A stretch of DNA of 64,000 nt from Pachysolen tannophilus NRRL Y-2460. Lineage: Eukaryota. The stretch spans positions 1,210,502-1,274,501 of the forward strand of contig KV454013.1 of NCBI GenBank assembly GCA_001661245.1, in the 5' to 3' direction. The notes under the pieces are model-generated. The model was given only the letters and a program-made list of their open reading frames with translations. It was not told where the DNA came from and did no database searches. Below, piece after piece: positions 17 through 50,121 of the stretch. Numbering within the stretch: the first letter of the stretch is position 1; every line of letters begins with the position of its first letter. The translations under genes were made by a program, and so were the position numbers.

Positions 17-2230
17 ATGTCTCCACTGAATGATCGCAGAGATTCGCATATTTCCATTGCGTTGACGCATGATTCTATGAATTCTTCGCATTCGAATATG
101 AGTGAAGACGAGAAGTTGAATGACCATAGACACCAAAGTTCGTCGTTGCCAATCAGAAGAGAAAGTGTTAATGATAATGGCGGTGGCGCTAACGTCGGCG
201 GTGCGGGTGGTGCTAATGGCGGGATCGGCACTAGGGCTTTGAATTTCAAGCAGTTAAATTATGAAACAAGCAACGGCGGTAATAATAAGTCTGGTAGGAG
301 AAATCATCTCATAGTTGAAAATAGTAGTGGTGGAAGTGAAGATGATGTGATTGATGAGGATAGTGATCTGGATACTGATTCGAGGAGTAAGAGTGAAAGA
401 GGAAGAGCCATATCGTTTACTGATCATATTAGGTCAATAGTAAAGCCAAAAGACCTATCACCAAATGCAAAGAATAGTAACGGTAATTCCAACAACAACA
501 ATTCCAACAACAACAGCAGCAACATCAATAATAACAATAATAGCAACAATAACAATAATACTAGTAATGGTAATAATAGTAATAATAATAATATCAATAA
601 TAACAATAATGGTATCTTGTTAAATAGCGATCTCAGCAACAAGTTATCCAAACAACTTTCAAGAGGTTCAAATATGAATGCTGATAGTGATGCTGATTCT
701 CATGCTTCAAGAGATTCACAGGAAACCGAAGAAGATGTTTGTTTCCCAATGATTCCGGATCATGTCAGAGTTAAAGGAATTGATTTTGGTGAAATTGAAG
801 AATTTATTCAGGAGCAAAGAGAAGAAAATATTGTTTTCAAGCAAAGAGAAGAATATTTGAAAAGAAATATGGTTTACGATAGTGGTAGTTCCAAGTCTTT
901 TAGTTCTACAGCTTTAAAATATACTCCAAAGTTGAAAAAACCTTCAATAATGTCGACAACTGCTGCTGACACTGGTAGAAAACCAGGATCAGTTAAATCA
1001 AGACAATCTTCAACTATATCTTATTCAAATAAGTTAAATGAAAAATATGGTTCAATCTTAGAAGATTCTGCAAAAATTCACGACGCTAGCAGTAGTAGCG
1101 AAGAAGGGGTTACATTTGCCAGAAATGAAAATATGTCAATACCTCCAGATCGGTTCAGCTTTTTCCATTCAGAAAGCGACGAAACTATACATGCTCCAGA
1201 TTTCCCATCTTTAGTAGATCCAGGACAATCTGTAAAAGATCTATTTATTAAAGACGAAGGTACTTGGTGGTTGGATTGTGTTTGTCCAACAGATGCAGAG
1301 ATGAAGATGTTGGCTAAAGCCTTTGGGATCCATCCATTGACAGCAGAAGATATTAGAATGCAAGAAACAAGAGAAAAAGTTGAATTATTTAAAAGTTATT
1401 ACTTTGTTTGTTTCCATACTTTTGAAACAGACAATGAAAGTGAAGATTTCTTGGAACCTATTAATGTTTATATAGTTGTCTTTAGAGATGGTGTATTGAC
1501 ATTTCATTTTTCGCCTATTTCACATCCTGCAAATGTGAGAAGACGTGTGAGACAATTGAGAGATTATGTTAATGTTTCTTCAGATTGGTTATGTTATGCT
1601 TTGATTGATGATATAACTGATGGATTTGCACCAGTAATTCAATCACTTGAATATGAAGCAGATGCAATAGAAGATAGTGTGTTTGTTGCCAGAGAGTTAG
1701 ATTTTGGTGCGATGTTAAGAAGAATTGGTGAATCCAGAAGAAAAGTCATGACGTTGATGAGATTATTATCTGGTAAAGCAGATGTTATTAAGATGTTTGC
1801 CAAAAGGTGTCAAGATGAAGTAGTAACTAATACAGGATATATCAAACCATCGTATGCTAATTTAGCTGGGTTACAAACTAATGAAAATGGCAATAGCAAT
1901 AGCAATAGCAATTTCAATGGTGGCGCTTTTTTCCCTCAAACGGGAAACGTTCAGCCGAGAGGTGACATTGCACTTTATTTGGGTGATATTCAGGATCATG
2001 TTTTGACCATGTTTCAAAATTTGTTATCCTATGAGAAAATTTTTTCTAGGTGTCATTCTAATTACTTGGCTCAACTTCAGGTTGAATCTTTTAATGCAAA
2101 TAATAAGGCAACTGAGATTTTATCAAAAGTTACTTTGTTGGGTACTATTTTAATTCCTACTAATGTAATCACCGGTTTATTTGGTATGAATGTCAAAGTC
2201 CCTGGAAAGGATAGTGAAAGTTTTGGTTGG
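17..2230 (+). CDS. ALR1: ALR1-like CorA-family Mg2+ transporter, paralog A (truncated by gap; attached C-terminus may be mis-assembled)
   Basis: Motifs SRDSQETEEDVCFPM, WWLDCVCPT, AFGIHPLTAEDIRMQETREKVELF and GLFGMN; Asn-rich N-terminus; runs into N gap at 2231. Confidence 0.9.
1242..1820 (+). repeat. 579-bp core shared by ALR copies (also 2891-3469; partial at 7905-8395 and 8582-9064)
   Basis: Identical by eye; last upstream SNP is c1241 vs t2890, and copies diverge after caagatgaag (1820/3469). Confidence 0.85.
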
Positions 2231-2564
2231 NNNNNNNNNNNNNNNNNNNNNNNNNNNNNNNNNNNNNNNNNNNNNNNNNNNNNNNNNNNNNNNNNNNNNN
2301 NNNNNNNNNNNNNNNNNNNNNNNNNNNNNNNNNNNNNNNNNNNNNNNNNNNNNNNNNNNNNNNNNNNNNNNNNNNNNNNNNNNNNNNNNNNNNNNNNNNN
2401 NNNNNNNNNNNNNNNNNNNNNNNNNNNNNNNNNNNNNNNNNNNNNNNNNNNNNNNNNNNNNNNNNNNNNNNNNNNNNNNNNNNNNNNNNNNNNNNNNNNN
2501 NNNNNNNNNNNNNNNNNNNNNNNNNNNNNNNNNNNNNNNNNNNNNNNNNNNNNNNNNNNNNNNN
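2231..2564. other. Assembly gap
   Basis: Run of N. Confidence 1.
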
Positions 2565-4089
2565 TGATTTAAGGAAAATGAGTTCTGCAGCTTTAAAATA
2601 TACCCCGGAAACTTACAAGAAACAGTCTGATAACAATCTAAAGACTTTGTCTTTTGATCAACCTTCAGCTTCCTCTTCAAACAAATTGTCTGGAGATGAG
2701 AAGAATAATAATGATCTTGAATATACACATGATGTTGGTAGTAGTAGCGAGGAAGGGGTTACATTTGCTGGAAATGAAAATATGTCAATTCCTCCAGATC
2801 GGTTCAGCTTTTTCCATTCAGAAAGCGACGAAACTATACATGCTCCAGATTTTCCATCTTTAGTAGATCCAGGACAATCTGTAAAAGATTTATTTATTAA
2901 AGACGAAGGTACTTGGTGGTTGGATTGTGTTTGTCCAACAGATGCAGAGATGAAGATGTTGGCTAAAGCCTTTGGGATCCATCCATTGACAGCAGAAGAT
3001 ATTAGAATGCAAGAAACAAGAGAAAAAGTTGAATTATTTAAAAGTTATTACTTTGTTTGTTTCCATACTTTTGAAACAGACAATGAAAGTGAAGATTTCT
3101 TGGAACCTATTAATGTTTATATAGTTGTCTTTAGAGATGGTGTATTGACATTTCATTTTTCGCCTATTTCACATCCTGCAAATGTGAGAAGACGTGTGAG
3201 ACAATTGAGAGATTATGTTAATGTTTCTTCAGATTGGTTATGTTATGCTTTGATTGATGATATAACTGATGGATTTGCACCAGTAATTCAATCACTTGAA
3301 TATGAAGCAGATGCAATAGAAGATAGTGTGTTTGTTGCCAGAGAGTTAGATTTTGGTGCGATGTTAAGAAGAATTGGTGAATCCAGAAGAAAAGTCATGA
3401 CGTTGATGAGATTATTATCTGGTAAAGCAGATGTTATTAAGATGTTTGCCAAAAGGTGTCAAGATGAAGCTGCTGCCAGTACGGGTTACTACAGGCCTCC
3501 TTCTTCCAATACAAATTTACAAAATTTATCTCAGGGAGCAAATGCATCACCACCACATCCAAATCATGCTCAGCCAAGAGCTGATATAGCTTTATACTTG
3601 GGCGATATTCAGGACCACGTCTTGACTATGTTTCAAAATTTGTTATCTTATGAAAAGATTTTCTCAAGATCTCATTCTAATTATTTAGCACAATTGCAAG
3701 TTGAATCTTTCAACGCAAATAACACTGTTACTGAGATGTTATCTAAAGTCACTGTTTTAGGTACTATATTAGTTCCATTGAACTTGATTACCGGTTTATT
3801 TGGTATGAACGTCCATGTTCCTGGTCAAGATGTAGGAACTTATGGATGGTTCTTTGGTATTGTTGGTGTTCTTATCATTTTCATTCTTGTCAGCTTGTTT
3901 GCTGCTAACCGTTACCTTAGCTCTCAGAGCAAATTAAGCAATGATCTTGATGGCGTCACAGAAGGAAGATCAATCAGAAGTTTTGGATTCAGAAAGAAGA
4001 ATAATAGCGGTGCTAGTGACTCTCGGAGTAGGAAAGGTGGAAGATCTATATTAAGTTTTACTAGCAAAGTTAATAATCGTTATGATTAA
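2565..4089 (+). CDS. ALR1: ALR-like Mg2+ transporter, 3' part (core plus C-terminus ending NRYD)
   Basis: CorA core, GLFGMN, second TM helix, stop at 4089; 2565-3381 repeats 7579-8395. Confidence 0.85.
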
Positions 4090-4298
4090 GAACTTTTTTT
4101 TCGTCATTTTTATTTATTTTCTATCATTATATAGAGATAGTATACTATTTTTTTTTTTTTTTTCACCCAACAGCATGTATTAGTTTGATAATTTTATTTG
4201 GTTTTCTGTACAGTCAGTCGTTATTATTTATAAACTTTTTACAAAAAATTATTATCTTATTGTAGATTACACAAATAAAAGGAATGGTAGTAATTAAA

Positions 4299-6023
4299 TT
4301 ATTTGTTAAGTTTTCTTCTCTTTTTGTCTCTCAAATCAGTCTTTTCACCAATAGGTATAGAGATTTCCTCGTTATCATCCAATTTAGGGCCATCTTCATC
4401 TTCGAAAACTTTTTTTCTCCAATCTTTCAATCTTCTTTTCTTTGTCAATTTTCTTCTATCTTTTACCCTCAACTCTTTAGCTTTATAAGGAGCAAATTTT
4501 TTCAATCCCATAAACTCATTCAAATCTTTATCGTCAGCCAAAATTATTTCTCTAGTGGTTAAGCCAAAAGAATCTGGAGAAACTTCACGATATCTAAATT
4601 TGATGTCTTCTCTATCCTTTGAACGCCCATTTCTCTCTTCATCTTTTTCCAATTCATCAATAATTTTATCTGTATTTTTTTGAACCAATTTTTCAGCTAA
4701 TTTTCTACTTATTTCTTTCTCTTTCTTTTTCGATTTTTTATCTTTTAACTTATCTTTCTTAGATAAACCTGATATTTCTTGTGTTTCTTGCTGGTTGTTT
4801 TTAATTTCTTCTATTTCTTCTTCTTCTTCATCTTCAAGATTATCTTTCTTACTGAAATCAGCCATTATTTCATCATCATCTTCCCATTCAGGTTTAGTAA
4901 CTTCTGCATTATAGTAAGCCTCATCGAATATTTGATTCATCTTACTATCCCATTCTGCATCATCAAAATCTTCGTTTAATAAGCTATCACCAAATACTTT
5001 TGTTATCAATTCATCGCTTACATCACTACCAACTGCTTCTTTTATCTGTTTCAATCTATCAGTAACTAAATTGATTTTCTTAACTTTTTTCTTTTCTAAT
5101 TTTTCCTTTTCTTTTAATTGTTCTTTCTCCTTTTCTTCGCTTTGTTTTTGTCTTTGTAATTTTCTTGAATTTGCCTTAGACCTTCTTAAAGTAGCTTGAT
5201 TTCTTGCATATGAAACAATTTCTGCAGAATTTGGATCCTCATACCTAAAATTATAAGCATGTTCAAAAATTTCTGCAGCATCTTCAAACTCATCATCATC
5301 TTCCTCAATTACCATCTTACCATCGAGATCCATGGTTTTATCACCCTTTTTAGGTATCCAAGCTTGAGAATCAAGAAATGCTTCCAAAAATTTTTCTTCG
5401 TCCTTATCTGGGTTTGGCAACTTTGCAGTTTCATCATGTGCAGCAGTGGAAACAGGTTTTGCCTTTTTCTTCAAAAACCCATCATCATCATCATCTTCTT
5501 CATCATCATTTTCCTTATCTGGATCATTTTGTTCTTTAAAAGCATCTTTAATTTCTGATAACAATTGATCTCTCTCTTCTCTCTGTTGAACCACAAATGG
5601 CTTCTCGCCATCCTGTTCTTCTTCATTTCTCAAGACACCACCAGAAAGCACATTCATCCTATGATAATCTTTCAAATAAATAGGTTTATATTTTTGCAGC
5701 GTTTGTAAATTTTCTACAGCCTTTTCAGGATCTTCAAAAAACCTAGTCTTTGGGTCAAACAAAACTTTGTCCCCCTTTCTAATTGCATCCAAGACTTTAT
5801 TTATCCCATCTTCCACTTCTTCAGTAATTAAATCTCCATATTCATCCTCTTCTTCTTCGTCCTCTTCATCTTCATCTTCTTCAGCAGACGAAAAAGATTC
5901 ATCATCATTGGTACCCTCATTTTTTTCAACAGCGCTCTTATCCAACGAGACCTGTTGGCCCTCTTTGGTCTCTACAACCTTTTCCTCTCTTGCCCTCTTA
6001 GCAGCCGACTTCTTTCTAGGCAT
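4299..6023 (-). CDS. KRI1: Kri1, 40S ribosome biogenesis factor
   Basis: YNFRYEDPNSAEIVSYARNQATLRR and FRYREVSPDSFGLTTREIILADDKDLNEFMGLKKFAPY; acidic/basic tracts; RRPE-like gaaaattttt about 6102. Confidence 0.95.
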   Translation of the reverse strand: MPRKKSAAKRAREEKVVETKEGQQVSLDKSAVEKNEGTNDDESFSSAEEDEDEEDEEEEDEYGDLITEEVEDGINKVLDAIRKGDKVLFDPKTRFFEDPEKAVENLQTLQKYKPIYLKDYHRMNVLSGGVLRNEEEQDGEKPFVVQQREERDQLLSEIKDAFKEQNDPDKENDDEEDDDDDGFLKKKAKPVSTAAHDETAKLPNPDKDEEKFLEAFLDSQAWIPKKGDKTMDLDGKMVIEEDDDEFEDAAEIFEHAYNFRYEDPNSAEIVSYARNQATLRRSKANSRKLQRQKQSEEKEKEQLKEKEKLEKKKVKKINLVTDRLKQIKEAVGSDVSDELITKVFGDSLLNEDFDDAEWDSKMNQIFDEAYYNAEVTKPEWEDDDEIMADFSKKDNLEDEEEEEIEEIKNNQQETQEISGLSKKDKLKDKKSKKKEKEISRKLAEKLVQKNTDKIIDELEKDEERNGRSKDREDIKFRYREVSPDSFGLTTREIILADDKDLNEFMGLKKFAPYKAKELRVKDRRKLTKKRRLKDWRKKVFEDEDGPKLDDNEEISIPIGEKTDLRDKKRRKLNK

Positions 6024-6706
6024 TATATATCAGCTCAATTTTCACTTATCAACTTTGAAACGATACAAGTACAAGTACAAGTATAAGACTTTTTAAGTTA
6101 GAGAAAATTTTTAGTACCGCTAAAAGAGAAAAAAGAAAAAAAAAAAACAATATTACCTCTTTGGGACATTTATTTATTTGAAGCACTACCCAAATAATTC
6201 AAAAGATAATAGTAGTGTACAATATAGCAAAAGTGCCTAAACAGGAAATACAGAAAAAAGAAACAAAAAAGGAAGTGCACAAAAAATACAAAACAAAAAA
6301 CAACATCAGTAGTGCTTATAAATACCGACAGTCCCAAATAGGAAGCTGGCGCTACAACAAAAAAACAGAGAATTTTGCAACATCATAAAAGAAGCAAGCA
6401 AAAAAATAAAAAGCAGAAAAAGAAATCGAATTTATAATTATAAATAAGTTAAATAAATTAGTTATATTTATTTGTAATTGTTAATAATTATTATTATAAC
6501 AAGTATATATTAAATATACTTTGAGTTAATTTTTCAGTTTATATTATATTGATTAAAGATTTTTTAATATCAATGTCCTTTGTTCTGTCAATGATTTTGT
6601 CAGAAGCTATTAAAGACCCACCTTAACTTAAATATTTTTTTTTTTTTTATTATAGTTCTTTGTTGAAGGGGAAAAAAGTTAAAACAATCAAGTTTTTATA
6701 AAAAAA

Positions 6707-8395
6707 ATGACCTCTCCTGTGGGACGTGAGAATTCACATGGATCTGTACATGAATTTTTTGGCTTGCCTCTGTCGGGTTTGGTTGAAGATGAAAAATTGA
6801 ACGATCATAGGCGTCAGAGTTCTTCGTTACCGGTTAGAAAGGATGGCGCTCTTGTTGGTGAAAGTCGTAATGGAGAATGTGCGGCTGATACTGGTGGAAG
6901 TTTGAGTTGTACGTTTCTGCAACATAATAAAGGCGGTAAGCTAATAGATTCAAGAGAACTAAGAAACAAGATGATACAGTTCAACGATGAAGAAGAAGAT
7001 GAATATGCTATTGATGAAGCTCCCGATATGGATAATGATGGCGGCATTAGTTTCTCAAGAGAGAGGGCAAGGTCATTTACAGATCATATCAAATCGATGA
7101 TGAAGCCGGGAGATGGGAACAGTAGTGGTGCTGTTCCACGTCCCTGTCCAGATCCGGATTCAGTTCCAGATTCAAATCCAGATTCAGTTCGAGATCCAGA
7201 GAATGTTGTTAGGGACAATCGTAAACTTTCTAAACAATTGTCGAAAAGTTCAGAGGCTAGCAATATTAATAATAATATTATTAATAATAAGAATAGTAAT
7301 GTTGATAGCGATGCAGATTCTCATGCCTCAAGGGAATCGCAAGAAACCGAAGAAGATGTCTGTTTTCCAATGATTCCAGCTCATATCACATTGAAAAGTA
7401 TTGATTTTGGTGAAATGCAACAATTCATCAAAGACCAAAGAGAAGAAAATATGATTTCTCGTCAAAGAGAGAAAAAATTGAAAAAGACAACTCCTTTTAA
7501 TAACTACAGTGTTGTTGGCGAAAGTACAACTTCTGCAACTATTGCAACTACTGCAACAAATACAACCGGCACTAGTAGTGATTTAAGGAAAATGAGTTCT
7601 GCAGCTTTAAAATATACCCCGGAAACTTACAAGAAACAGTCTGATAACAATCTAAAGACTTTGTCTTTTGATCAACCTTCAGCTTCCTCTTCAAACAAAT
7701 TGTCTGGAGATGAGAAGAATAATAATGATCTTGAATATACACATGATGTTGGTAGTAGTAGCGAGGAAGGGGTTACATTTGCTGGAAATGAAAATATGTC
7801 AATTCCTCCAGATCGGTTCAGCTTTTTCCATTCAGAAAGCGACGAAACTATACATGCTCCAGATTTTCCATCTTTAGTAGATCCAGGACAATCTGTAAAA
7901 GATTTATTTATTAAAGACGAAGGTACTTGGTGGTTGGATTGTGTTTGTCCAACAGATGCAGAGATGAAGATGTTGGCTAAAGCCTTTGGGATCCATCCAT
8001 TGACAGCAGAAGATATTAGAATGCAAGAAACAAGAGAAAAAGTTGAATTATTTAAAAGTTATTACTTTGTTTGTTTCCATACTTTTGAAACAGACAATGA
8101 AAGTGAAGATTTCTTGGAACCTATTAATGTTTATATAGTTGTCTTTAGAGATGGTGTATTGACATTTCATTTTTCGCCTATTTCACATCCTGCAAATGTG
8201 AGAAGACGTGTGAGACAATTGAGAGATTATGTTAATGTTTCTTCAGATTGGTTATGTTATGCTTTGATTGATGATATAACTGATGGATTTGCACCAGTAA
8301 TTCAATCACTTGAATATGAAGCAGATGCAATAGAAGATAGTGTGTTTGTTGCCAGAGAGTTAGATTTTGGTGCGATGTTAAGAAGAATTGGTGAA
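6707..8395 (+). CDS. ALR1: ALR-like Mg2+ transporter, paralog B, 5' part (truncated by gap)
   Basis: Diverged N-terminus sharing DEKLNDHR..SSSLP and SRESQETEEDVCFPM with paralog A, then the shared core. Confidence 0.9.
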
Positions 8396-8581
8396 NNNNN
8401 NNNNNNNNNNNNNNNNNNNNNNNNNNNNNNNNNNNNNNNNNNNNNNNNNNNNNNNNNNNNNNNNNNNNNNNNNNNNNNNNNNNNNNNNNNNNNNNNNNNN
8501 NNNNNNNNNNNNNNNNNNNNNNNNNNNNNNNNNNNNNNNNNNNNNNNNNNNNNNNNNNNNNNNNNNNNNNNNNNNNNNNNN
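8396..8581. other. Assembly gap
   Basis: Run of N. Confidence 1.
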
Positions 8582-9726
8582 TGACAGCAGAAGATATTAG
8601 AATGCAAGAAACAAGAGAAAAAGTTGAATTATTTAAAAGTTATTACTTTGTTTGTTTCCATACTTTTGAAACAGACAATGAAAGTGAAGATTTCTTGGAA
8701 CCTATTAATGTTTATATAGTTGTCTTTAGAGATGGTGTATTGACATTTCATTTTTCGCCTATTTCACATCCTGCAAATGTGAGAAGACGTGTGAGACAAT
8801 TGAGAGATTATGTTAATGTTTCTTCAGATTGGTTATGTTATGCTTTGATTGATGATATAACTGATGGATTTGCACCAGTAATTCAATCACTTGAATATGA
8901 AGCAGATGCAATAGAAGATAGTGTGTTTGTTGCCAGAGAGTTAGATTTTGGTGCGATGTTAAGAAGAATTGGTGAATCCAGAAGAAAAGTCATGACGTTG
9001 ATGAGATTATTATCTGGTAAAGCAGATGTTATTAAGATGTTTGCCAAAAGGTGTCAAGATGAAGTAGTAACTAATACAGGATATATCAAACCATCGTATG
9101 CTAATTTAGCTGGGTTACAAACTAATGAAAATGGCAATAGCAATAGCAATAGCAATTTCAATGGTGGCGCTTTTTTCCCTCAAACGGGAAACGTTCAGCC
9201 GAGAGGTGACATTGCACTTTATTTGGGTGATATTCAGGATCATGTTTTGACCATGTTTCAAAATTTGTTATCCTATGAGAAAATTTTTTCTAGGTGTCAT
9301 TCTAATTACTTGGCTCAACTTCAGGTTGAATCTTTTAATGCAAATAATAAGGCAACTGAGATTTTATCAAAAGTTACTTTGTTGGGTACTATTTTAATTC
9401 CTACTAATGTAATCACCGGTTTATTTGGTATGAATGTCAAAGTCCCTGGAAAGGATAGTGAAAGTTTTGGTTGGTTTTTTGGGATTCTTGGTGTGTTGAT
9501 AGTATTCATATTAGTTTGTTTAACTTTAGCAAACTATTATTTTAACTTAAAAAGTAAAAATCTGTCGTCAAGTCTTTTAAACTCTATGGATGGTAGCAGG
9601 TCAACCAGATCATTTAGAAGTTTCGGTTTTAGAGCGAGAACCAGTAGCAGCAATAACTCGGGCATGGGTGCTAATAAGTCCATACTGAGCTTCACAAGTA
9701 AAACTAACAAGTCTCATTTTGACTAG
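8582..9726 (+). CDS. ALR1: ALR-like transporter, 3' part (core plus C-terminus ending SHFD); probably completes the gene starting at 6707
   Basis: GLFGMN, TM helix, stop at 9726; 8582-9474 repeats 1338-2230. Confidence 0.85.
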
Positions 9727-28989: not shown

Positions 28990-30005
28990 GTTGCAATCAT
29001 TTCATTCTACGAATAAGAGTATATGTTTCTGTTAATCATCAATTCGAAGGTTTTTTTTATTGAGGAGCTAAAAAAGAGAGTTTTTTTGTTTTGTTGGAGA
29101 AGTTTTGATGTTTCTGTTCCATTTCATGTTCAATTGCAACTGTTTCACAAGTTTGAAATCTTTTACTTCTAGAATGTTACCATTTCAAATGGTGGATCTA
29201 GTGTAAAAGGTATTGTTCACCACTCACACCACTCTAATAGATTTTTATTTTTGTGACAAGTGCCTTGGATCACGGTATAGTTCACGTTTACGTTGATATT
29301 GGAGATTATATTTCAAGTTAAGTTAAGTCTTTCTTCGTTTACTCTTTGTTTTTTGTTGTTGTTTTTTTTTTTGGCTCAGTATTATATGGACAAATCTTCC
29401 AATAAAGGAGAATGCATTTATAACAGTACTCGTTTTTTATAGAGATGTTATTCAATAGTTTGCAAAAGGAAACATTGGAAAGATTATTTTTGTTTTTTTT
29501 TTTCAAATTGTTTCATGATTTAAACTATAGTGTCGTATTCCGGATAATAGTTTATTGGGATTAATTTGTTCTGAAAGCTTTGAGATTACAACAAGAAAGG
29601 AAGAAGAAGAAGAAGAATTTAGCTTTTTAGAAGTATAATCTCTATTTCGACTTTAATAAAATTTTGGGGAGTTTTTTTTTCAAATGTTATTTTTCCTCTC
29701 CATTTAATTATAAATAAAAGGAAATAAATAGCATTCCAAAGTTTGAAAAGTTGTTATCAAAGGGAAAAGGCAAAAGAACATTAAACGTATTTTCCAACTT
29801 TTTAAACAGAAACTTTTTCTTTCTTTGAGAAGAAATATTATATTTATGAGTAGGGCTTTTCCTTTCTTTTTATGGAAATGATCAATACATTATCTTATGT
29901 ATGTCGAAAGTTGATAATTTCTTTCTTAATTGAATCGATAGATTAGATTCTTACTTTGAATGATTGATTGCTCTTTTTTTTTTTTTTTTTATTATTTTTA
30001 TCTTT
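28990..30005 (+). ncRNA. TER1: Telomerase RNA candidate (TER/TLC1 homolog), about 1 kb; ends approximate
   Basis: Template 29218-29234; boundary hairpin 29160-29209; long arm 29301-29643; pseudoknot 29665-29735; core-enclosing helix 29137-47/29744-53; terminal helix 28993-29020/29947-29971; no ORF; near PDX3 and an snR161-like gene. Confidence 0.85.
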
Positions 30006-30080
30006 TATCATTTAGAGCATAAGTTTATACTCTAAATGATAAAACAATACTAGCTAATCTATTTATCTTCTAAAGATTAA

Positions 30081-31226
30081 TTATAATTCACAAAAAGTCA
30101 GACTATTTAATCCAACAACCCAATTATAAACACCTAAAATCAACATCATTAATACAAAACAAGAACATATCGAAAACGAGCCATATATATATCTATCTTT
30201 CACTTTACCAAAACCGAACAATTCAGCTACAAATGTAGAAACTGTGCTTAATGAGCCACTAAATCCAATACTGATTGCATCTAAAACTAAACAACTTAAA
30301 TAATCATCAACAATATATTCATCTCCACCATAAGGTTTTTTCCCATAAGATAATAACGTTGTTATAGCTAATACCAAGACTGCAATAAAATTTGCTAGAT
30401 AAGTACCTATAAAAATTCTATCAGATTTTGTGTTAAATTTCAATGCCAAGTAATATCTTAAATAACAACCAAAGGGAGCAAAGCAACAAGCTAACGACCA
30501 AGGTTTCCAAAAATCATGATTATGCAATGCGCAAGATAATACCAACATTAAAACATCCAACAGGAATCCCAAAATAGGTATTATAAAATCAAATAATGAA
30601 ATCATTGATCTAGAAAATTTCCAACCAAGATTATGATCTACATAATTTCCTAATTCTTTACCCATTCTATATCCAAAAATAGATAACCCCAATTGTGTTA
30701 ACAATACAGCGAAAAATTCCATAGTTCCATAACCTGTTGTTGGATACAGAGCACCACCATTTAAATTTAACGTCTTGGTAAGAATTTCTAAAATATATGA
30801 AGAAAAAGATGAAAAAGTCCCACAATAACCTGTAGTTAAACCAATATATAACGGAATCCTTTTTTTATTTTCAAACCGCGGAACATGATAACGCTTAATA
30901 AACCTCCTGATATCATTTGACTCAACTTTTGATAATTTATAAGTCCCATTTGTATCTGTCAGTTCAAGATCATGAATAAGTAAATTCTCCCAAACTTCAG
31001 CAGATGAGTTAATATACCCCATTATAAAACATGCCGTAAAGTTAACCCATACAACACTAACTCCATTGTTATGAACATAATTATTATCATAATACGTCAA
31101 TTTACTTAAGGCTATCCTTGATAAGCAACCCAATACACTCCAAAAACTTAAATCAAAAAAAATCTTCACATTTGTCAAAATCGAGTGCGCATCAACCAAG
31201 ATAACTTTATTCGATAGCTGATTCAT
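30081..31226 (-). CDS. FEX1: Fluoride export channel FEX (two fused Fluc/CrcB domains)
   Basis: GCLSR..L, WVNFTACFIMG, GLTTGYCGTFSSFSS, APFGCYLRY, GTYLANF, GFSGSLSTVSTF; first ATG at 31226. Confidence 0.92.
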   Translation of the reverse strand: MNQLSNKVILVDAHSILTNVKIFFDLSFWSVLGCLSRIALSKLTYYDNNYVHNNGVSVVWVNFTACFIMGYINSSAEVWENLLIHDLELTDTNGTYKLSKVESNDIRRFIKRYHVPRFENKKRIPLYIGLTTGYCGTFSSFSSYILEILTKTLNLNGGALYPTTGYGTMEFFAVLLTQLGLSIFGYRMGKELGNYVDHNLGWKFSRSMISLFDFIIPILGFLLDVLMLVLSCALHNHDFWKPWSLACCFAPFGCYLRYYLALKFNTKSDRIFIGTYLANFIAVLVLAITTLLSYGKKPYGGDEYIVDDYLSCLVLDAISIGFSGSLSTVSTFVAELFGFGKVKDRYIYGSFSICSCFVLMMLILGVYNWVVGLNSLTFCEL

Positions 31227-31414
31227 TTCCTCGACAGATTCCAAGCTTTACCACAGATCATCAGTCAAAACAATCTCAAATATATTTATATATTTATATA
31301 TTTATATATATATATACGAAACCACCTTTGTTCTTTTTTTTTTTGACCTATTTTCAATTATAGTCGTGCGGTTTACTACAAAACCTAATCCGGTAATAAG
31401 AGCCAATTGAATTT

Positions 31415-31485
31415 GCCGCCTAATTCCCCGCTTCTTTGCCCGCCCAGATTCCGCCTAAAGTTAGGCCGCAAATCTTCCCGCCAAA
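31415..31485. promoter_or_regulatory. Cluster of CCGC(C) motifs in the FEX/ENO divergent promoter
   Basis: Six CCGC cores within 70 bp of otherwise AT-rich DNA. Confidence 0.55.
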
Positions 31486-31908
31486 TCTTGAAGAAAACGA
31501 CAACGACGAAGACAATGACGAAGACGATGATGATGGCGACGACGACAACGACGAAGAATAGAAAAGCAGAGATATGCTCACTTTTTATACTCAGCTAGCT
31601 GGGGTTTCATAAGAAAGCTAAGAAAGCCAGGTGTACTGGCAAATATCCTGATTTTGCTGTTCTGTTGTAATTCCGCTGTGTATTAAAAACTGGAGTTGCA
31701 ATAGAACTGCTACTATGCATCTGTCTTTATATATTATCGACTATCAACTCTGGGCTATGAGCTATGTGCTATGATTTATGAGCTATGTATGGTATTTATG
31801 GCATTTATGTAGTTTTTCAAGTTTAATACCCTCGATACTCATCTTTATTAGTTATTTATGCATGCATTGCGCGATGAGTTCGATGTAGAGTTGCATTTAT
31901 TTCCCCTT

Positions 31909-31925
31909 CGGTGGGTAGGTTACCG
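31909..31925. promoter_or_regulatory. CGG-N11-CCG (Gal4-type UAS) upstream of enolase
   Basis: ttCGGtgggtaggttaCCGaa with exact 11-nt spacer; TATATAA at about 32027. Confidence 0.55.
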
Positions 31926-32103
31926 AAATTGGGGATGAATGAGAGGTACCCGAGCAGGTGATAATTTGATTAAAGCAACAGATTGGGTGTTTTTGAGCAT
32001 TTAAAAAGGAGGAGAGATCTTGATGGTATATAAGGTTAGTAAAATGTTGAAAAAAAAAAAAAAAACAAATATTGAGAATTAATTTAGGAGTATTATCGGT
32101 AAT

Positions 32104-33420
32104 ATGACTATTCAAAAAATTTTTGCTCGTTACGTTTATGATTCTAGAGGGAATCCAACTGTAGAAGTTGATCTTCATACAGAAAATGGGTTATTTAGAT
32201 CTATTGTTCCTTCTGGTGCATCTACTGGTGTTCATGAAGCTTTAGAATTAAGAGATGGTGATATGACAAAATGGCAGGGTAAAGGTGTTTTAAAAGCAGT
32301 TTCCAATGTTAACAATATAATTGCTCCAGCTTTGATTAAGGCAAATTTAGATGTTAAAGATCAAGAAGCAATTGATAATTTTATGATTAAATTGGATGGT
32401 ACTCCAAATAAATCTAAATTGGGTGCAAATGCTATATTGGGTGTTTCTTTAGCATCTTCTAAAGCTGCTGCTGCTGAAAAGGGTATTCCACTTTATGCTT
32501 ATATTGCAAGTTTATCTAATACTCCTAAACCTTATGTTTTACCTGTTCCTTTCCAAAATGTATTAAATGGTGGTACTCATGCTGGAGGAGCATTAGCTTT
32601 TCAAGAATTTATGCTTGCTCCTATCGGTGCACCAACGTTTAGTGAAGCTTTAAGAATCAATTCAGAAATTTATCATATTTTAAAATCATTAGCTAAAAAA
32701 AAATATGGTCAATCTGCTGGTAATGTTGGTGATGAAGGTGGAGTTGCTCCAAATATCAATACTCCAAGAGAAGCTTTAGATTTAGTTTGTGCAGCTATTA
32801 AACAGGCTGGTTATGAAGGTATTGTTGGTATTGGAATTGATCCAGCATCATCTGAATTTTTTAAAGATGGGAAATATGATTTAGATTTTAAAAATCCTAA
32901 TTCTGATAAATCTAAATGGCTTACAGGTACTCAACTTGCTTCTCTTTATATAGAGTTGATGAAAGAATATCCAATTGTATTATTGGAAGATCCTTTTGCT
33001 GAAGATGATTGGGAATCATGGACTCATTTCCGTACTTTAATTGATCCAAATTTCCCAATTGTTGGTGATGATTTAACTGTTACAAATACTATTAGAATTC
33101 AAAAAGCTATTAAAGAAAATTGTGCAAATAGTTTATTATTAAAAGTTAACCAAATTGGTACTTTAACCGAATCTTTAAATGCAGCAAAATTGGCTTATAG
33201 TGCTGGATGGGGTATCTTGGTTTCTCATAGATCTGGAGAAACAGAAGATACTTATATTGCTGATTTAACTGTAGGTCTTAGAACTGGTCATATTAAATCC
33301 GGTGCTCCTGCTAGATCTGAAAGATTAGCTAAATGGAACCAAATCTTGAGAATAGAAGAAGAGTTGAAAGGTAAAGCAATTTATGCTGGAAAGAATTTCC
33401 ACAAATCTCTTCAAATTTAA
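32104..33420 (+). CDS. ENO: Enolase (divergent paralog, weak codon bias)
   Basis: [57 protein letters not shown]. Confidence 0.97.
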
Positions 33421-33486
33421 ACTTGGAACTAAACTATATAGTATAATTTATTAAGATATATTTATGGAAAGAAGTATTTAAATCGA

Positions 33487-33644
33487 AAGGCCCCGCCTAT
33501 TAATAGTCTCGGCCGCCTATTTCTACTGCCTATTTCCACCGCCAAAAAAAAAAAATTTCAAAGGCGGATGTTTCCTGCTAGTCTCTTTCCGCCCAGTCTC
33601 TTTCCGCCAGACTTTCCGCCTAATTTTTTTTTTGGCGGGGCCTT
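33487..33644. repeat. 158-bp GC-rich element with 11-bp inverted ends and internal CCGCC repeats
   Basis: aaggccccgcc at 33487-97 and ggcggggcctt at 33634-44; internal agtctctttccgcc twice. Confidence 0.65.
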
Positions 33645-33926
33645 CTGCCTTTTGCTTCCTTTGCTGCATTTGCTGCTTGCTTGCTGCCTGCCTGCCTTTA
33701 CTTCCTGCCTGATGTTAATGAATGTCACCAGTTTACTTTAAATATATCAACGTTGATGACTAGTCGGAATTTAGTGGTTTCTAAAGTTTGATATATATAT
33801 ATATATATATATATATAGATGTTAAACTCTTTTTTTTTGCTTTTTTTTAAACATTTACAATTACAATTACAATTACTTTTCTTTGAATTAAAACTTTAGT
33901 TAATTTTGTGATTTAAATTTAAGGCA

Positions 33927-34694
33927 ATGACTAATAAAGTTGATAACCATACTGAAGAACCTATAATTTGTAAGTATTTGAGTGAAAAAAATTTATTTAA
34001 ATTCCTAATTAAAAATTGAGTTGAATATATATTAACAAAATATTGAATAGTTGCTCCAAAGACTTATCAATATGATAAGGATTCATTGGATATTACTGAA
34101 GTTGATGAGGATCCAATAAAGCAATTTGAAAAATGGTTTAAAGAAGCAATGGAATCTGGAGAACCACTTCCAGAATCAGTAAATTTTGCAACTGCAGAAT
34201 TACCATCAGGTAAAGTTTCTTCTAGAATTGTATTATTTAAAGAATTAGATCATAAAGGATTTATTATTTATTCTAATTGGAAAGATTCGAAAAAGGGTAA
34301 ACAATTAAGTACAAATCCATATGGTGCTTTAGCATTTTTTTGGAAAAATTTACAAAGACAAGTTAGAATTGAAGGAATTACAGAATTTGTTAGTAGAGAA
34401 ACTTCTCAAAGATATTTTAATACAAGACCAAGAGGTTCAAAAATAGGTGCTTGGTCATCACCTCAATCTACAGAAATTTCAAGTAGAAAAGAATTTGAAG
34501 AAATTTATTCCAAGAGAGAAGAAGAATTTAAAAATGAGAAAGAAATTCCATGTCCTGAATATTGGGGTGGATTAAGAATAATTCCATTAGAAATTGAATT
34601 TTGGCAAGGAAGACCAAGTAGATTACATGATAGAATTGTTTATAAACGTGAAACAGAAAATGATAATTGGAAAATTGTAAGAATTGCTCCATAA
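33927..34694 (+). CDS. PDX3: Pyridoxamine 5'-phosphate oxidase, 2 exons (33927-33969, 34051-34694)
   Basis: Intron 33970-34050 (GTAAGT...TATTAAC...TAG) gives PIIFAPKTYQY; motifs SRIVLFKELD, QRQVRIEG, EFWQGRPSRLHDR. Confidence 0.96.
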
Positions 34695-34817
34695 CATGAA
34701 GAAAAGATAAGAAATAAAAGAAAATTGAATTGATCTTAATACAACAACAACAACAAAAACAAAAAAAAAAAATCTACAATTTCTAATTAAATGAATTATA
34801 CATAGTTAAATATATTT

Positions 34818-35420
34818 TTAAAATTTAGAAACAGCTTCATAAAAACTTTTACCTTGAATTTCAGCAATTCCCAATTCTGTTTTATTTGGTTGTCTTGAAC
34901 CATCTGCACCAGCGAAAGTACCAGCACCCCAAGCAGAACCACCATGAATTTCATCAAAAGAAGTTAATAATGGGAAAGCAGGACCATAACCTAATGGAAT
35001 ATAAATGATACCATGATGAGCTAAAGTTGATAAGGCATTTTGAACTGTAACTTCTTGTCCACCACCTGGAGTACCAGTTGAAACAAATATACCTGCAGCT
35101 TTTTGATATAAAGCACCTGAACTCCATAATTGACCAGTTTGATCAATAAAAGTTTTCCATTGAGCTGGGAAATTACCATATCTTGTTGGAATACCAAATA
35201 AGAAAGCATCATAATCTTTTAAAGTATCCATTGAAGCAATTGGATAATCTGGTTTTGGAGCAGCATGCATCAGTTTCAAAACATCTTCAGATAATGTTTC
35301 CGGAATTTGATAAATATCAGCTTTACCTCCAGCAGCTTCAACACCTTTCTTTTCTGCTTCAGCCAATTGAGAAATATGACCATACATAGAATATATGATA
35401 ATTGCAATTTTTGGAGCCAT
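34818..35420 (-). CDS. PST2: Flavodoxin-like NAD(P)H:quinone oxidoreductase (WrbA family)
   Basis: [38 protein letters not shown]. Confidence 0.9.
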
Positions 35421-35673
35421 TTTTTATTTTCACTTTTTTTATTAATACAAGTAATCTAATTTGTAAAATTAAAATTAAAAATAAAATTTAAAAATTAATT
35501 ATAATACCATTCAAGATTTTGATTTCCTTTTATATTCTCTCCTCCTACCTATTTCTCTCTAATTTCTATCATATTCTATCATATTCTCTCGTTTGGAACC
35601 ATAATTCAAAGAGAGTACACGTAGATTGGAAGACGAAAAGGTGCAAATGCACAGTCATGCAATGTCCTTATAA

Positions 35674-35703
35674 TTAGTAAGGTGTTTGTAAGCAAATTAC
35701 TAA
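35674..35703. promoter_or_regulatory. Inverted pair of Yap1/Cap1 response elements (TTACTAA)
   Basis: ttagtaa at 35674-80 and ttactaa at 35697-703 in the PST2/YCP4 divergent promoter. Confidence 0.6.
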
Positions 35704-35917
35704 TTTTAAGGCAAAATGATAGTTAAATTGATCGCCATAAACAGTTGGAAAGAAGGGAAGCTAGCTGGGCACAGGAGACCCATTTGAAAATATAGAAGGA
35801 GAGAGAATAAGAGATTGAAATGGGGTTTATATTGAATTTTCATGAATATAGTTTTATATATAAATATATATATTTATATATGAATTATAGATTGGAAGAT
35901 CAGACGGTAATATAATA

Positions 35918-36835
35918 ATGACAAAGATAGCCGTAAGTATGGGGTACTGGGATACTGGAGTTTTCAATTACTGGATTATTAGATTATTGGATTATTGGGG
36001 GAGTTGAATCCTTTTTTTCAAAATTTTTTTTTTTTTATTTTATATAATTATTGATCGAATTACTAACATTTCTTCTTAGATTATTGTATATTCGACTTAT
36101 GGCCATGTATTGGCATTGTCAAAAGAGATTCAAAAAGGTTTAAAGTCACAGGATAAAAATATTCAAGCAGATATTTTCCAAGTTCCAGAAACTTTATCTG
36201 AAGAAGTATTATCCCTGATTAGTGCACCACCAAAGGATCCATCTATTCCAGCTGCAACTACTCAAGTATTACTGGATTATGATGGGTTTTTATTTGGGAT
36301 TCCAACAAGGTATGGTAATATTCCATCTCAATTGGCTACTTTAATTGATCAAACTGGAGAATTATGGGCTACTGCGGCTTTATATCATAAACCAGCAGGT
36401 GTATTTGTTTCAACAGGTACTCAAGGTGGTGGACAAGAAGTTACTATAAAAAGTTTTCTTTCCTTTTTAGCTCATCATGGTATTATTTATGTTCCATTAG
36501 GTTATGGTCCTGCTTTCCCATTATTAACTTCATTTGATGAAGCTCATGGTGGATCTCCTTGGGGTTCTGGTACTTTTGCTGGAGTTGATGGTTCAATACA
36601 ACCTTCAGAAAATACTTTAAAACTTGCTTTTTTACAAGGTCAAGAATTTGCAAAAGCTGCTGCAAAATTTATTCCAGAAAATAAAAAGACAATTAATACA
36701 ACTGGTGAAATTTCATCAAAAAAATTACAAGATGCTAGAACAGGACAAAGTAAACCAGGAGCTACTTCAACAACTAAACCAGAAGCCACTTCTGATGAAG
36801 GTACATTTTGTGGTTTCAAATGTACTATCATCTAA
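35918..36835 (+). CDS. YCP4: Flavodoxin-like protein with CaaX tail (CTII), 2 exons (35918-35932, 36080-36835)
   Basis: Intron 35933-36079 (GTAAGT...TACTAAC...TAG) gives MTKIA|IIVYSTYGHV; WrbA motifs; C-terminal extension. Confidence 0.88.
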
Positions 36836-37111
36836 AAAAAAAAAAAAAAATAAAGAAAAATCATATAAAGAAATTTAATTTTAAACCAAGTCTAGACTGA
36901 CTGTCTTGACTCTCTTTCACTAGATTTCACTAGATTTTTTTTTTTTTTTTATTTTTCTTTTTTCTTTCTTTTCGATTCTTTTTGCTTTTGTTTTAATTTT
37001 AATTTAAATTCGACATTTGTCTTCTTGCTTTCTCAAGTAACAATCAAAAATAAAAAAAAGAAAGAAATAAATAAATAAATAAATTTATAGTTATTTTATG
37101 TATCTATGTAT

Positions 37112-38194
37112 TTATCTGGAAGAAATAATTGTTTTATTTCCTTGCTTTTGAACTCTTGCGTATTTCATTATAAAACTTGTAATTTTTAAATTTTTTTCAT
37201 TTAAATCTATTATAAAAGGTTCAAATTCATCTAAATCCCAATATTTATTTAATTGAAATAATGCTTTAAACCTTGAAGTATTATCCATTGGCAATGAATG
37301 TTTATTTAAATATTTTATTTTATTTGTTGATCCTGTAATTTTATAATAATAACCTTTTAACATGTTTAAATCTATGGAAATACTTTCTATTGAAGTTAAA
37401 GATGAAGGAATTGATGATTTCCAATTTAAACAAAATTCATCTATTTCAATAGAATTTGTTGAATATAATTTTAACATTTCAATACCATACCATTTTGAAA
37501 TTTTTAAAAAATCTATTTTAAAAGGATTTTGTAAATTTTTTGAAAATTTTTTTAAAACTGTTTCTAATATATCAATAGTTATATTTTCAATTTCATTTTC
37601 AATTTCAATTTCAATAATTTGGAAAATCTTGTATAAATTTAAATTATTAAAATTTAAATCATTTGCAATTATAATATTTATTAATAAAGTCAAAATTTCA
37701 GTTATAAAATTACTTGATAATATCACTGCTATATTTTCAATTTCAGATCCATTTAATTCTATCCAATGATTATCAAATTCTCCTCTACTTATAGGAGATT
37801 GTAAAATTAATTCATCAACAGAAATAGAAATAGATTGATTTTTCAATAATCTTTCTTTAAATTTAGATAAATTACCATTATAAATGGGCACATTAGAATA
37901 ATTTATTCTTCCAATTGTTTTATTTAATTCCAATGCAGAACCAAATGAAGAAAACCCTATAATCTTTTCATTTTTTTCTTTAATCAATAATTGAGTATTT
38001 GAATGTTTCTTTTCTCTTAATTGGAAAGTCTTTGTATCAGTAGTTAAAACCAAATCAAGACTATCATGTGAAGACGCCTTTATCGATATCCCAGATTTTT
38101 GTAATTTAATCACTTCTAAAAGCTCGGGACTAAGTTCTATTAATTTATAAGAAGCATCAGGAACCAAATACGAGTAAGTCTCCATAGTCTTCAT
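37112..38194 (-). CDS. DCC1: Sister chromatid cohesion protein Dcc1 (Ctf18-RFC)
   Basis: YKLIELSPELL, TFQLREKKHSNTQLL, RFKALF...W, FIMKYAR; MCB ACGCGT at 38222-27; adjacent to BUD3. Confidence 0.9.
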   Translation of the reverse strand: MKTMETYSYLVPDASYKLIELSPELLEVIKLQKSGISIKASSHDSLDLVLTTDTKTFQLREKKHSNTQLLIKEKNEKIIGFSSFGSALELNKTIGRINYSNVPIYNGNLSKFKERLLKNQSISISVDELILQSPISRGEFDNHWIELNGSEIENIAVILSSNFITEILTLLINIIIANDLNFNNLNLYKIFQIIEIEIENEIENITIDILETVLKKFSKNLQNPFKIDFLKISKWYGIEMLKLYSTNSIEIDEFCLNWKSSIPSSLTSIESISIDLNMLKGYYYKITGSTNKIKYLNKHSLPMDNTSRFKALFQLNKYWDLDEFEPFIIDLNEKNLKITSFIMKYARVQKQGNKTIISSR

Positions 38195-49739: not shown

Positions 49740-49780
49740 ATTCAATAATTAATACCAATAAAAAAATTAATGAAAAGAAA

Positions 49781-49815
<35 letters not shown>

Positions 49816-49990
49816 GATTTATATATCCTTCCGACAAAAAGCAATCGTTCTCTCAAAAAAAAAACAACTAACAATATCGGTCCACCTATAGATATATATA
49901 TATATATTTATAAATATATTTATATATATATATTTAAACGCTGTATTTTTGCGTTATCAGTATTATCATTTACCGGATTAGGAAACTGCT

Positions 49991-50025
49991 CCGCGGGCCG
50001 TCGGTCTGTAGCCGCGGAACCGCGG
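49991..50025. promoter_or_regulatory. Three CCGCGG Zn2Cys6-type sites upstream of the dioxygenase
   Basis: ccgcgg at 49991, 50012 and 50020. Confidence 0.55.
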
Positions 50026-50121
50026 AAAGAACCGCAGAGCAGAGAAGAGAAACACAGAGCAAAGAAGAGCAAAGAATAGCATAGCAGTCAATTGTTGGAT
50101 GAGATTTCAAGTGGATGATGA

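Follow-up and report, generated by a model that had tools for sequence, protein, structure and literature searches.

Fluoride inhibits enolase as a magnesium-fluoride-phosphate complex formed on the catalytic ligands of the enzyme, and proteins of the FEX family lower cytoplasmic fluoride. The inhibition constant (Ki) is given as about 80 uM (PMC11139923). In the fluoride-resistance operon of Enterobacter cloacae FRM, the genes are arranged as riboswitch-ppaC-uspA-eno-gpmA-crcB-orf5249, and eno was induced 176-fold (PMC5533749). In Saccharomyces cerevisiae, YOR390W, which is FEX1 (PMC9266342), starts at 1,076,782 and YOR393W at 1,080,274, a spacing of 3,492 bp with YOR391C in between, and the arrangement of YOR390W-YOR393W is repeated by YPL281C/YPL280W/YPL279C (PMC3289889). 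Here we analyze a 64,000-nucleotide stretch of the genome of the yeast Pachysolen tannophilus NRRL Y-2460 (contig KV454013.1, positions 1,210,502 to 1,274,501; the whole stretch is hereafter the window), in which a FEX fluoride channel gene and an enolase gene form a divergent pair 877 bp apart. On balance we think it probable, with some reserve, that the window enolase is a fluoride-adapted backup enzyme paired with FEX, the two genes forming a two-gene fluoride-tolerance unit. A sequence-only reading of this DNA had described the divergent layout, and the gap (31227..32103), both open reading frames and their domains were confirmed. The genes and the distinguishing residues of the enolase are as follows.

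30081..31226, minus strand: FEX fluoride channel gene, 381 amino acids, with Pfam CRCB (PF02537) in two stretches
32104..33420, plus strand: third enolase paralogue, 438 amino acids, intact, single exon, with Enolase_N and Enolase_C
32842..32844, plus strand: Pro247, immediately after the magnesium ligand Asp246; Cys247 in yeast enolase, Val in most yeasts
32980..32985, plus strand: Leu293-Leu294, immediately before the magnesium ligand Glu295; canonical Ser-Ile
33217..33219, plus strand: Leu372, on the strand leading to His375-Arg376-Ser377; canonical Met
33289..33291, plus strand: His396, two residues before the substrate-binding Lys398; canonical Gln

The pair resembles the exporter and spare enolase part of bacterial fluoride operons and is not a member of that group, because it has no riboswitch and its enzyme is yeast-derived. 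The E. cloacae operon and its plasmid kin (L082, L084, L085, L171 and L178) likewise cluster a channel of the CrcB/Fluc fold with a spare enolase, and their enolases carry Pro247, a hydrophobic residue 293 and His396 (together, the triple), as does the window enolase. In contrast to the operon, the window pair is eukaryotic, consists of two genes and lacks the riboswitch, ppaC, usp and gpm; its enolase is of yeast lineage, only about 50% identical to E. cloacae-type enolases and in a separate clade. Fluoride induction was demonstrated for the operon and is a candidate property of the window pair. The head-to-head layout of the window also occurs on a Pediococcus plasmid (L086 4062-6281), where a crcB pair faces an eno that is without the triple and a fluoride riboswitch lies between them on the eno side.

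We take YOR393W and YPL281C of S. cerevisiae to be the enolase-like genes ERR1 and ERR2, and the HSP names of the intervening reading frames are assigned on the same assumption. With these names, the FEX1-HSP33-ERR1 and FEX2-HSP32-ERR2 blocks place FEX about 3.5 kb from a diverged spare enolase, as in the window (gene positions from PMC3289889 and PMC9266342). Unlike the window pair, these blocks are subtelomeric and have one intervening gene, and they are likened to it by gene position.

The enolase beside FEX and its residue signature

The window protein is predicted to be an enolase (EC 4.2.1.11) with 2-phosphoglycerate dehydratase activity on the basis of its domains, fold and residues. 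Its structural model (predicted local distance difference test score, pLDDT, 93.4) shares the fold of canonical yeast Eno1 (PDB 1EBG, 7V67), with template modelling (TM) scores of 0.97-0.98, and all catalytic and metal ligands are the same, 12 of 12 catalytic, magnesium and substrate residues being kept in an alignment numbered by yeast enolase 1. In yeast numbering we take these residues to be S39, H159, E168, E211, D246, E295, D320, K345, H373, R374, S375 and K396. PDB 2AKZ is, by its record title, a human enolase fluoride complex. Two further P. tannophilus enolases are on record under the consecutive accessions ODV95913 and ODV95914; they share 90.9% identity with each other, and the window enolase is 78.1% and 79.7% identical to these two. 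In run contigs these canonical enolases form a tandem pair 939 letters apart. The window gene is therefore not the only enolase of the genome, and its earlier description as a secondary enolase was borne out.

The five unusual motifs quoted in the sequence-only reading are all present in the translation, and their canonical counterparts are present in yeast enolase 1 (PDB 1EBG chain). The accompanying remark that the differences lie near metal and substrate residues holds insofar as they are adjacent to them and the same as in fluoride-operon and mould-clade enolases, but they stand beside the ligands and not at them, the first-shell ligands being unchanged. Second-shell differences from canonical yeast enolase were located at positions 247, 293, 294, 318, 372, 396 and 399, and the predicted model places the marks either within barrel strands 242-246, 291-295, 370-374 and 396-399 or at their ends.

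Two protein sets were used to evaluate how specific these residues are. The yeast set comprised 119 enolases (homology matches minus the aberrant models P0001 and P0008, plus P0154), while a fungal second-enolase clade of 120 proteins (P0157-P0276) was collected with the middle exon of the mould enolase L073, described below, as search query. Members of this clade that carry names are all filamentous ascomycetes, annotated just as enolase. Pro247 was found in 116 of 120 second-clade proteins against 7 of 119 in the yeast set, Leu293 in 119 of 120 against 4 of 119, and His396 in 96 of 100 against none of 119. The complete triple is carried by the window enolase and by 92 of the 99 second-clade members covering position 396, and by none of the 119 yeast enolases. 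By these alignments His396 is the most specific of the marks, and position 372 is Phe in the second clade and in most fluoride-cluster enolases where the window enolase has Leu. In other respects the mould clade differs from the window enolase, being about 55% identical to it, intron-bearing in L073 and a clade of its own.

Ten columns that the mould clade shares with 11 fluoride-linked enolases, and that are infrequent in controls, were defined with the window protein excluded. The window enolase matches five of these (247, 293, 294, 389 and 396, of which 389 is weakly conserved) and departs from the canonical residue at two more (318 and 372). Scores at the same columns were 0 in 95 of the 119 yeast enolases, with a maximum of 4, and reached at most 2 in 87 control prokaryotes. 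Matching at the shared columns (5/10) exceeded that at columns specific to the mould clade (7/56; Fisher p 0.013, indicative only). Second enolases with a partial signature (Pro247 or an altered residue 293) were also seen in other budding yeasts (P0016, P0028, P0040, P0047, P0056, P0059, P0084, P0093, P0102 and P0107). An ESM Atlas comparison returned generic enolase clusters only.

A mechanism can be proposed in which FEX lowers cytoplasmic fluoride and is paired with a duplicated yeast glycolytic enolase. The marks (Pro after Asp246, Leu-Leu before Glu295, Leu372 and His before Lys398) would, judging from strand geometry, repack the barrel strands that bear the ligands. The repacked core below the magnesium site might then weaken the dead-end magnesium-fluoride-phosphate complex, probably at a cost in speed, and a backup copy beside the channel would keep phosphoenolpyruvate flowing once fluoride enters. 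Less firmly, the shared upstream region may couple expression of FEX and the enolase. A single substitution has been reported to make Streptococcus mutans enolase less inhibited (PMC6297193).

Linkage and signature in other organisms

Scanning metagenome contigs with a FEX alignment, in which 80 of 196 confirmed matches were kept, yielded 55 locus groups, 25 of which have flanks of 3 kb or longer on each side. In one group (L072/L073), a signature-bearing enolase on the FEX strand ends 739 bp ahead of that gene, and the FEX protein clusters with one from Cadophora malorum, indicating a Cadophora-like mould. The L073 enolase is only 52-58% identical to the window enolase and yet has its odd motifs. 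By chance 0.02-0.15 such hits would be expected, assuming genomes of 12-35 Mb with one to three enolases. The possibility, raised by the sequence-only reading, that no linkage exists elsewhere is contradicted by the Cadophora-like mould and S. cerevisiae; with one of 55 groups, FEX-enolase linkage is recurrent but rare. One pair alone could not say whether adjacency is accidental, but recurrent linkage together with the residue signature argues that it is more than chance. Two fungal proteins, L073 9599-11233 and P0007, are filed under bacterial names (a Deltaproteobacteria metagenome-assembled genome; Flavobacterium), probably through contamination of those assemblies. In S. cerevisiae FEX-null strains hardened to fluoride, ERR3 ranked with the most mutated genes (PMC9683101). 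Little importance is attached to this, since the ERR copies share 99-100% identity (PMC3063691) and the mutation counts may be read-mapping noise.

For bacteria, 18 annotated plasmid enolases, hand-picked for genus spread, were compared (8 of the 13 near-full-length rows of one listing and 10 of 60 of another). In 11 of them the flank examined contained both an exporter and a fluoride riboswitch, which in L081 and L088 is not ahead of eno. The triple was present in nine of these 11 riboswitch-linked enolases and in one of the seven unlinked ones (L170). The 80 context-blind prokaryotic controls (the top 80 among the first 598 matches; most are archaeal, and the search patterns leave out the proteobacterial type) contained neither the triple nor His396, a hydrophobic residue 293 in four, and Pro247 in 11, so that Pro247 by itself was rejected as a marker; crcB was found within 5 kb of none of the 80. 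Among 132 diverse representatives with aligned ligand columns, His396 occurred in three, all of which hold the other two marks, and the three residues thus co-vary. Representatives with the full triple (P0312, P0327 and P0423) may be further independent origins. In context-blind pattern scans of viral contigs, the His form stood behind a fluoride riboswitch in two of two cases and the Gln form in none of three.

A genome scan with the His pattern matched 3 of 301 genomes (Chloroflexota, the phylum of L131), one of the three matches not being an enolase. Rescans gave 0 of 201 genomes, mostly those of the 301 set, and 0 of 201 in another scan. No fusion to CrcB was found among 18 long representatives and P0243. 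Away from recognisable fluoride clusters, His-type enolases were also seen after pyk in Acidithiobacillus (L170 2542-5287) and, frameshifted, adjoining hydrogenase-4-like genes (L188 97-6223). The latter is ambiguous because hydrogenase-type genes are a class listed by reviews with fluoride switches.

Descent of the enolase and competing explanations

Quick trees (LG+G4; 81, 61 and 30 rows; canonical mould enolases and Err not included) placed the window enolase among budding-yeast enolases (SH-aLRT, an approximate likelihood ratio test of branch support, 99-100). It appeared as sister to a second enolase of Cyberlindnera jadinii (P0016) and not to its own canonical pair, with a branch length of 0.15-0.16 against 0.03-0.10 for the paralogues. 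The mould second clade (support 100) and the proteobacterial cluster enolases (99-100) formed separate clades, the Bacteroidota enolase L175 stood apart again, and three yeast copies with Pro247 adjoined their own canonical sister on longer branches. At 35 columns diagnostic for yeast versus mould clade, the window enolase is yeast-type at 26. As the carriers fall in separate clades, the changes were read as repeated convergence, and the signature residues look convergent across groups. We hold it plausible, though somewhat short of probable, that fluoride-tolerant enolase arose at least three to four times by the same second-shell substitutions (in proteobacterial operons, a Bacteroidota plasmid, filamentous fungi and budding yeasts) and that fungi repeatedly moved such copies beside FEX, giving rise to a fluoride-resistance cluster in eukaryotes. 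The window gene could instead be an ancient fungal duplicate that was afterwards homogenised with ENO1. Horizontal transfer from a bacterial operon was rejected on the approximately 50% identity and the placement in the yeast clade. A gene-conversion tract from the mould clade was likewise rejected, as yeast-type and mould-type columns interleave with no contiguous tract.

Several results weigh against a fluoride-adapted enzyme of this kind. An enolase beside FEX was found in none of the other 54 of the 55 surveyed groups, and linkage is rare although the fungal second clade is widespread. Approximately unbiased (AU) tests did not reject a clade uniting the window and mould second enolases (p 0.0998, and 0.0802 without the ten columns). 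The column thresholds were fixed after the motifs had been seen, so the p values are indicative only. The bacterial counts come from a hand-picked plasmid set and rest on about two lineages, since the carriers overlap: eight of nine bacterial and both viral-contig matches lie in or resemble one clade and are not independent. Two fluoride-linked enolases (L086 and L088) lack the triple, and two carriers stand apart from fluoride genes, namely L170, from an Acidithiobacillus pyk-eno-glgP island with no annotated fluoride gene in its 22-kb record, and the fragment L187, with none nearby. Fluoride tolerance and co-induction of the window enolase are candidate properties that its sequence suggests. 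Fex1 of S. cerevisiae is reportedly constitutive, according to a paper title. Published authors interpret the operon enolases as an extra dose rather than as tolerant enzymes (PMC5533749, PMC11139923), and in most comparisons among streptococci no tolerant enolase was found (PMC5508371).

A copy that serves dosage only would join the fluoride response with FEX while being as sensitive as ordinary enolase, its changes tuning the stability or folding of a copy made under stress. This is the standard reading of the bacterial operons (PMC5533749, PMC11139923), and it agrees with the unchanged first-shell ligands and with L086 and L088, which manage without the triple. We nonetheless consider it unlikely: a pure dosage copy should remain near-identical to the optimised enzyme, as the tandem pair does (90.9%), and the fact that these rare residues were reached more than once suggests that some property of the enzyme has changed. 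The signature could instead fit another condition that goes along with fluoride stress (an acid cytoplasm, low or altered Mg2+, phosphate-like inhibitors or the gluconeogenic direction), the FEX linkage being secondary. The triple in the Acidithiobacillus island without a fluoride gene, the absence of enolase from most fungal FEX loci, and the overlap of fluoride toxicity with acid stress (PMC7329995, PMC9683101) speak for such a condition. Against it, the bacterial carriers are mostly in clusters with a fluoride-specific riboswitch, and a spare enolase lies near FEX in three fungal lineages, and we give this account small credence.

A chance neighbour, that is, a relaxed and slowly drifting duplicate in an AT-rich stretch beside FEX, appears very unlikely. 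Close divergent genes are common in yeasts, and the regional trough in third-position GC content (GC3), the longer branch of the window enolase and its departures at 36 of 321 conserved columns would all be expected of such a gene. However, the reading frame and the 12 key residues are intact, the departures fall preferentially at the shared columns (5 of 8; p 7e-4 in a binomial test with a lenient null), and His396 occurs in 0 of 119 yeast and 0 of 80 prokaryotic controls. Recurrence of the linkage leaves this explanation already strained.

Sequence context and meaning of the pair

The region between the two genes holds the following features.

31227..32103, no strand: divergent intergenic region, 877 bp, GC 0.36, eight CCGC/GCGG words; putative bidirectional promoter
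32027..32034, plus strand: TATA-like box, 77 bases 5' of the enolase ATG; a pattern match with presumed function

The layout suggests a shared promoter for FEX and the enolase. No riboswitch or other RNA was matched in Rfam up to E=1 across 29000-38000. The CCGC clusters were rejected as a fluoride promoter element, as equal word density at the intergenic regions 33421-33926 and 49740-50121 shows that they are not specific. A GAC/GAT/GAA-rich microsatellite at 31496-31560 draws unrelated contigs in the run-contig comparison. Run contigs X1 and X5 (from two studies; X5 is possibly the source of the window) have zero substitutions over 32078-33781, which covers only the enolase side of the pair.

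Domain search and alignment resolved the FEX chain into two CrcB/Fluc-like halves with conserved family motifs, and by analogy with its family the protein is expected to export fluoride. Translated with table 26 (CTG as Ala), it equals P. tannophilus PACTADRAFT_67665 except for 21 residues treated as an intron in the database model. The 63 bases concerned (30858-30920) are in frame, show no yeast splice consensus on visual inspection, and correspond in alignment to a basic stretch that precedes the LYxGLTTG motif in other FEX proteins; they are probably coding sequence.

The AT-ending codons ascribed to the enolase are real, with a GC content at synonymous third positions (GC3s) of 0.09, C- or G-ending codons in 12 of 118 for F, Y, N, D, H and K, and no CTG. 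Pieces of the canonical copies differ from the window enolase mainly by T>C and A>G, which fits the codon comparison made earlier. This usage is not special, though, as GC3s is 0.03 in PDX3, 0.07 in the PST2-like gene and 0.10 in DCC1, within a window range of 0.03-0.29 (33 reading frames). Since low GC3s is common to the next three genes, codon use says little on enolase expression, and codon bias was discarded as a sign of low expression. T- versus A-ending codons for A, G, V, T and I number 118:35 in the enolase versus 1989:1310 in the remaining reading frames (p 2e-5). The GC3 trough (0.03-0.10) spans 32104-38194, comprising ENO, PDX3, the PST2-like gene and DCC1; in yeasts, a trough of this kind can indicate DNA close to a centromere. 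Elsewhere in the window, two CorA-type Mg2+ transporter genes at 17-9726, each interrupted by a run of N at an assembly gap, lie on either side of KRI1 some 20-30 kb from FEX, and a second flavodoxin-like gene at 34818-36835, which seems to be split by an intron and has a Cys-rich tail, is divergent from the PST2-like gene.

In a literature search that left most subscription journals outside, neither linkage of FEX and enolase in fungi, nor the second clade of moulds, nor these residues turned up as the subject of a paper. Whether natural fluoride-insensitive enolases exist is a question decades old with mixed results (PMC5508371), and current reviews hold that microbes simply make more enzyme under fluoride (PMC11139923). 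That bacteria, moulds and a yeast enolase beside FEX share these second-shell residues is surprising, and a natural fluoride-tolerant enolase becomes directly testable, the locus providing a small residue set together with a within-genome control pair (80% identical). If the window enolase is indeed a fluoride-adapted backup, eukaryotic fluoride defence would extend beyond export, the orphan enolase paralogues (S. cerevisiae ERR and the mould second enolase) would gain a function, and the enzyme could serve as a component in microbes engineered to produce or break down organofluorines.

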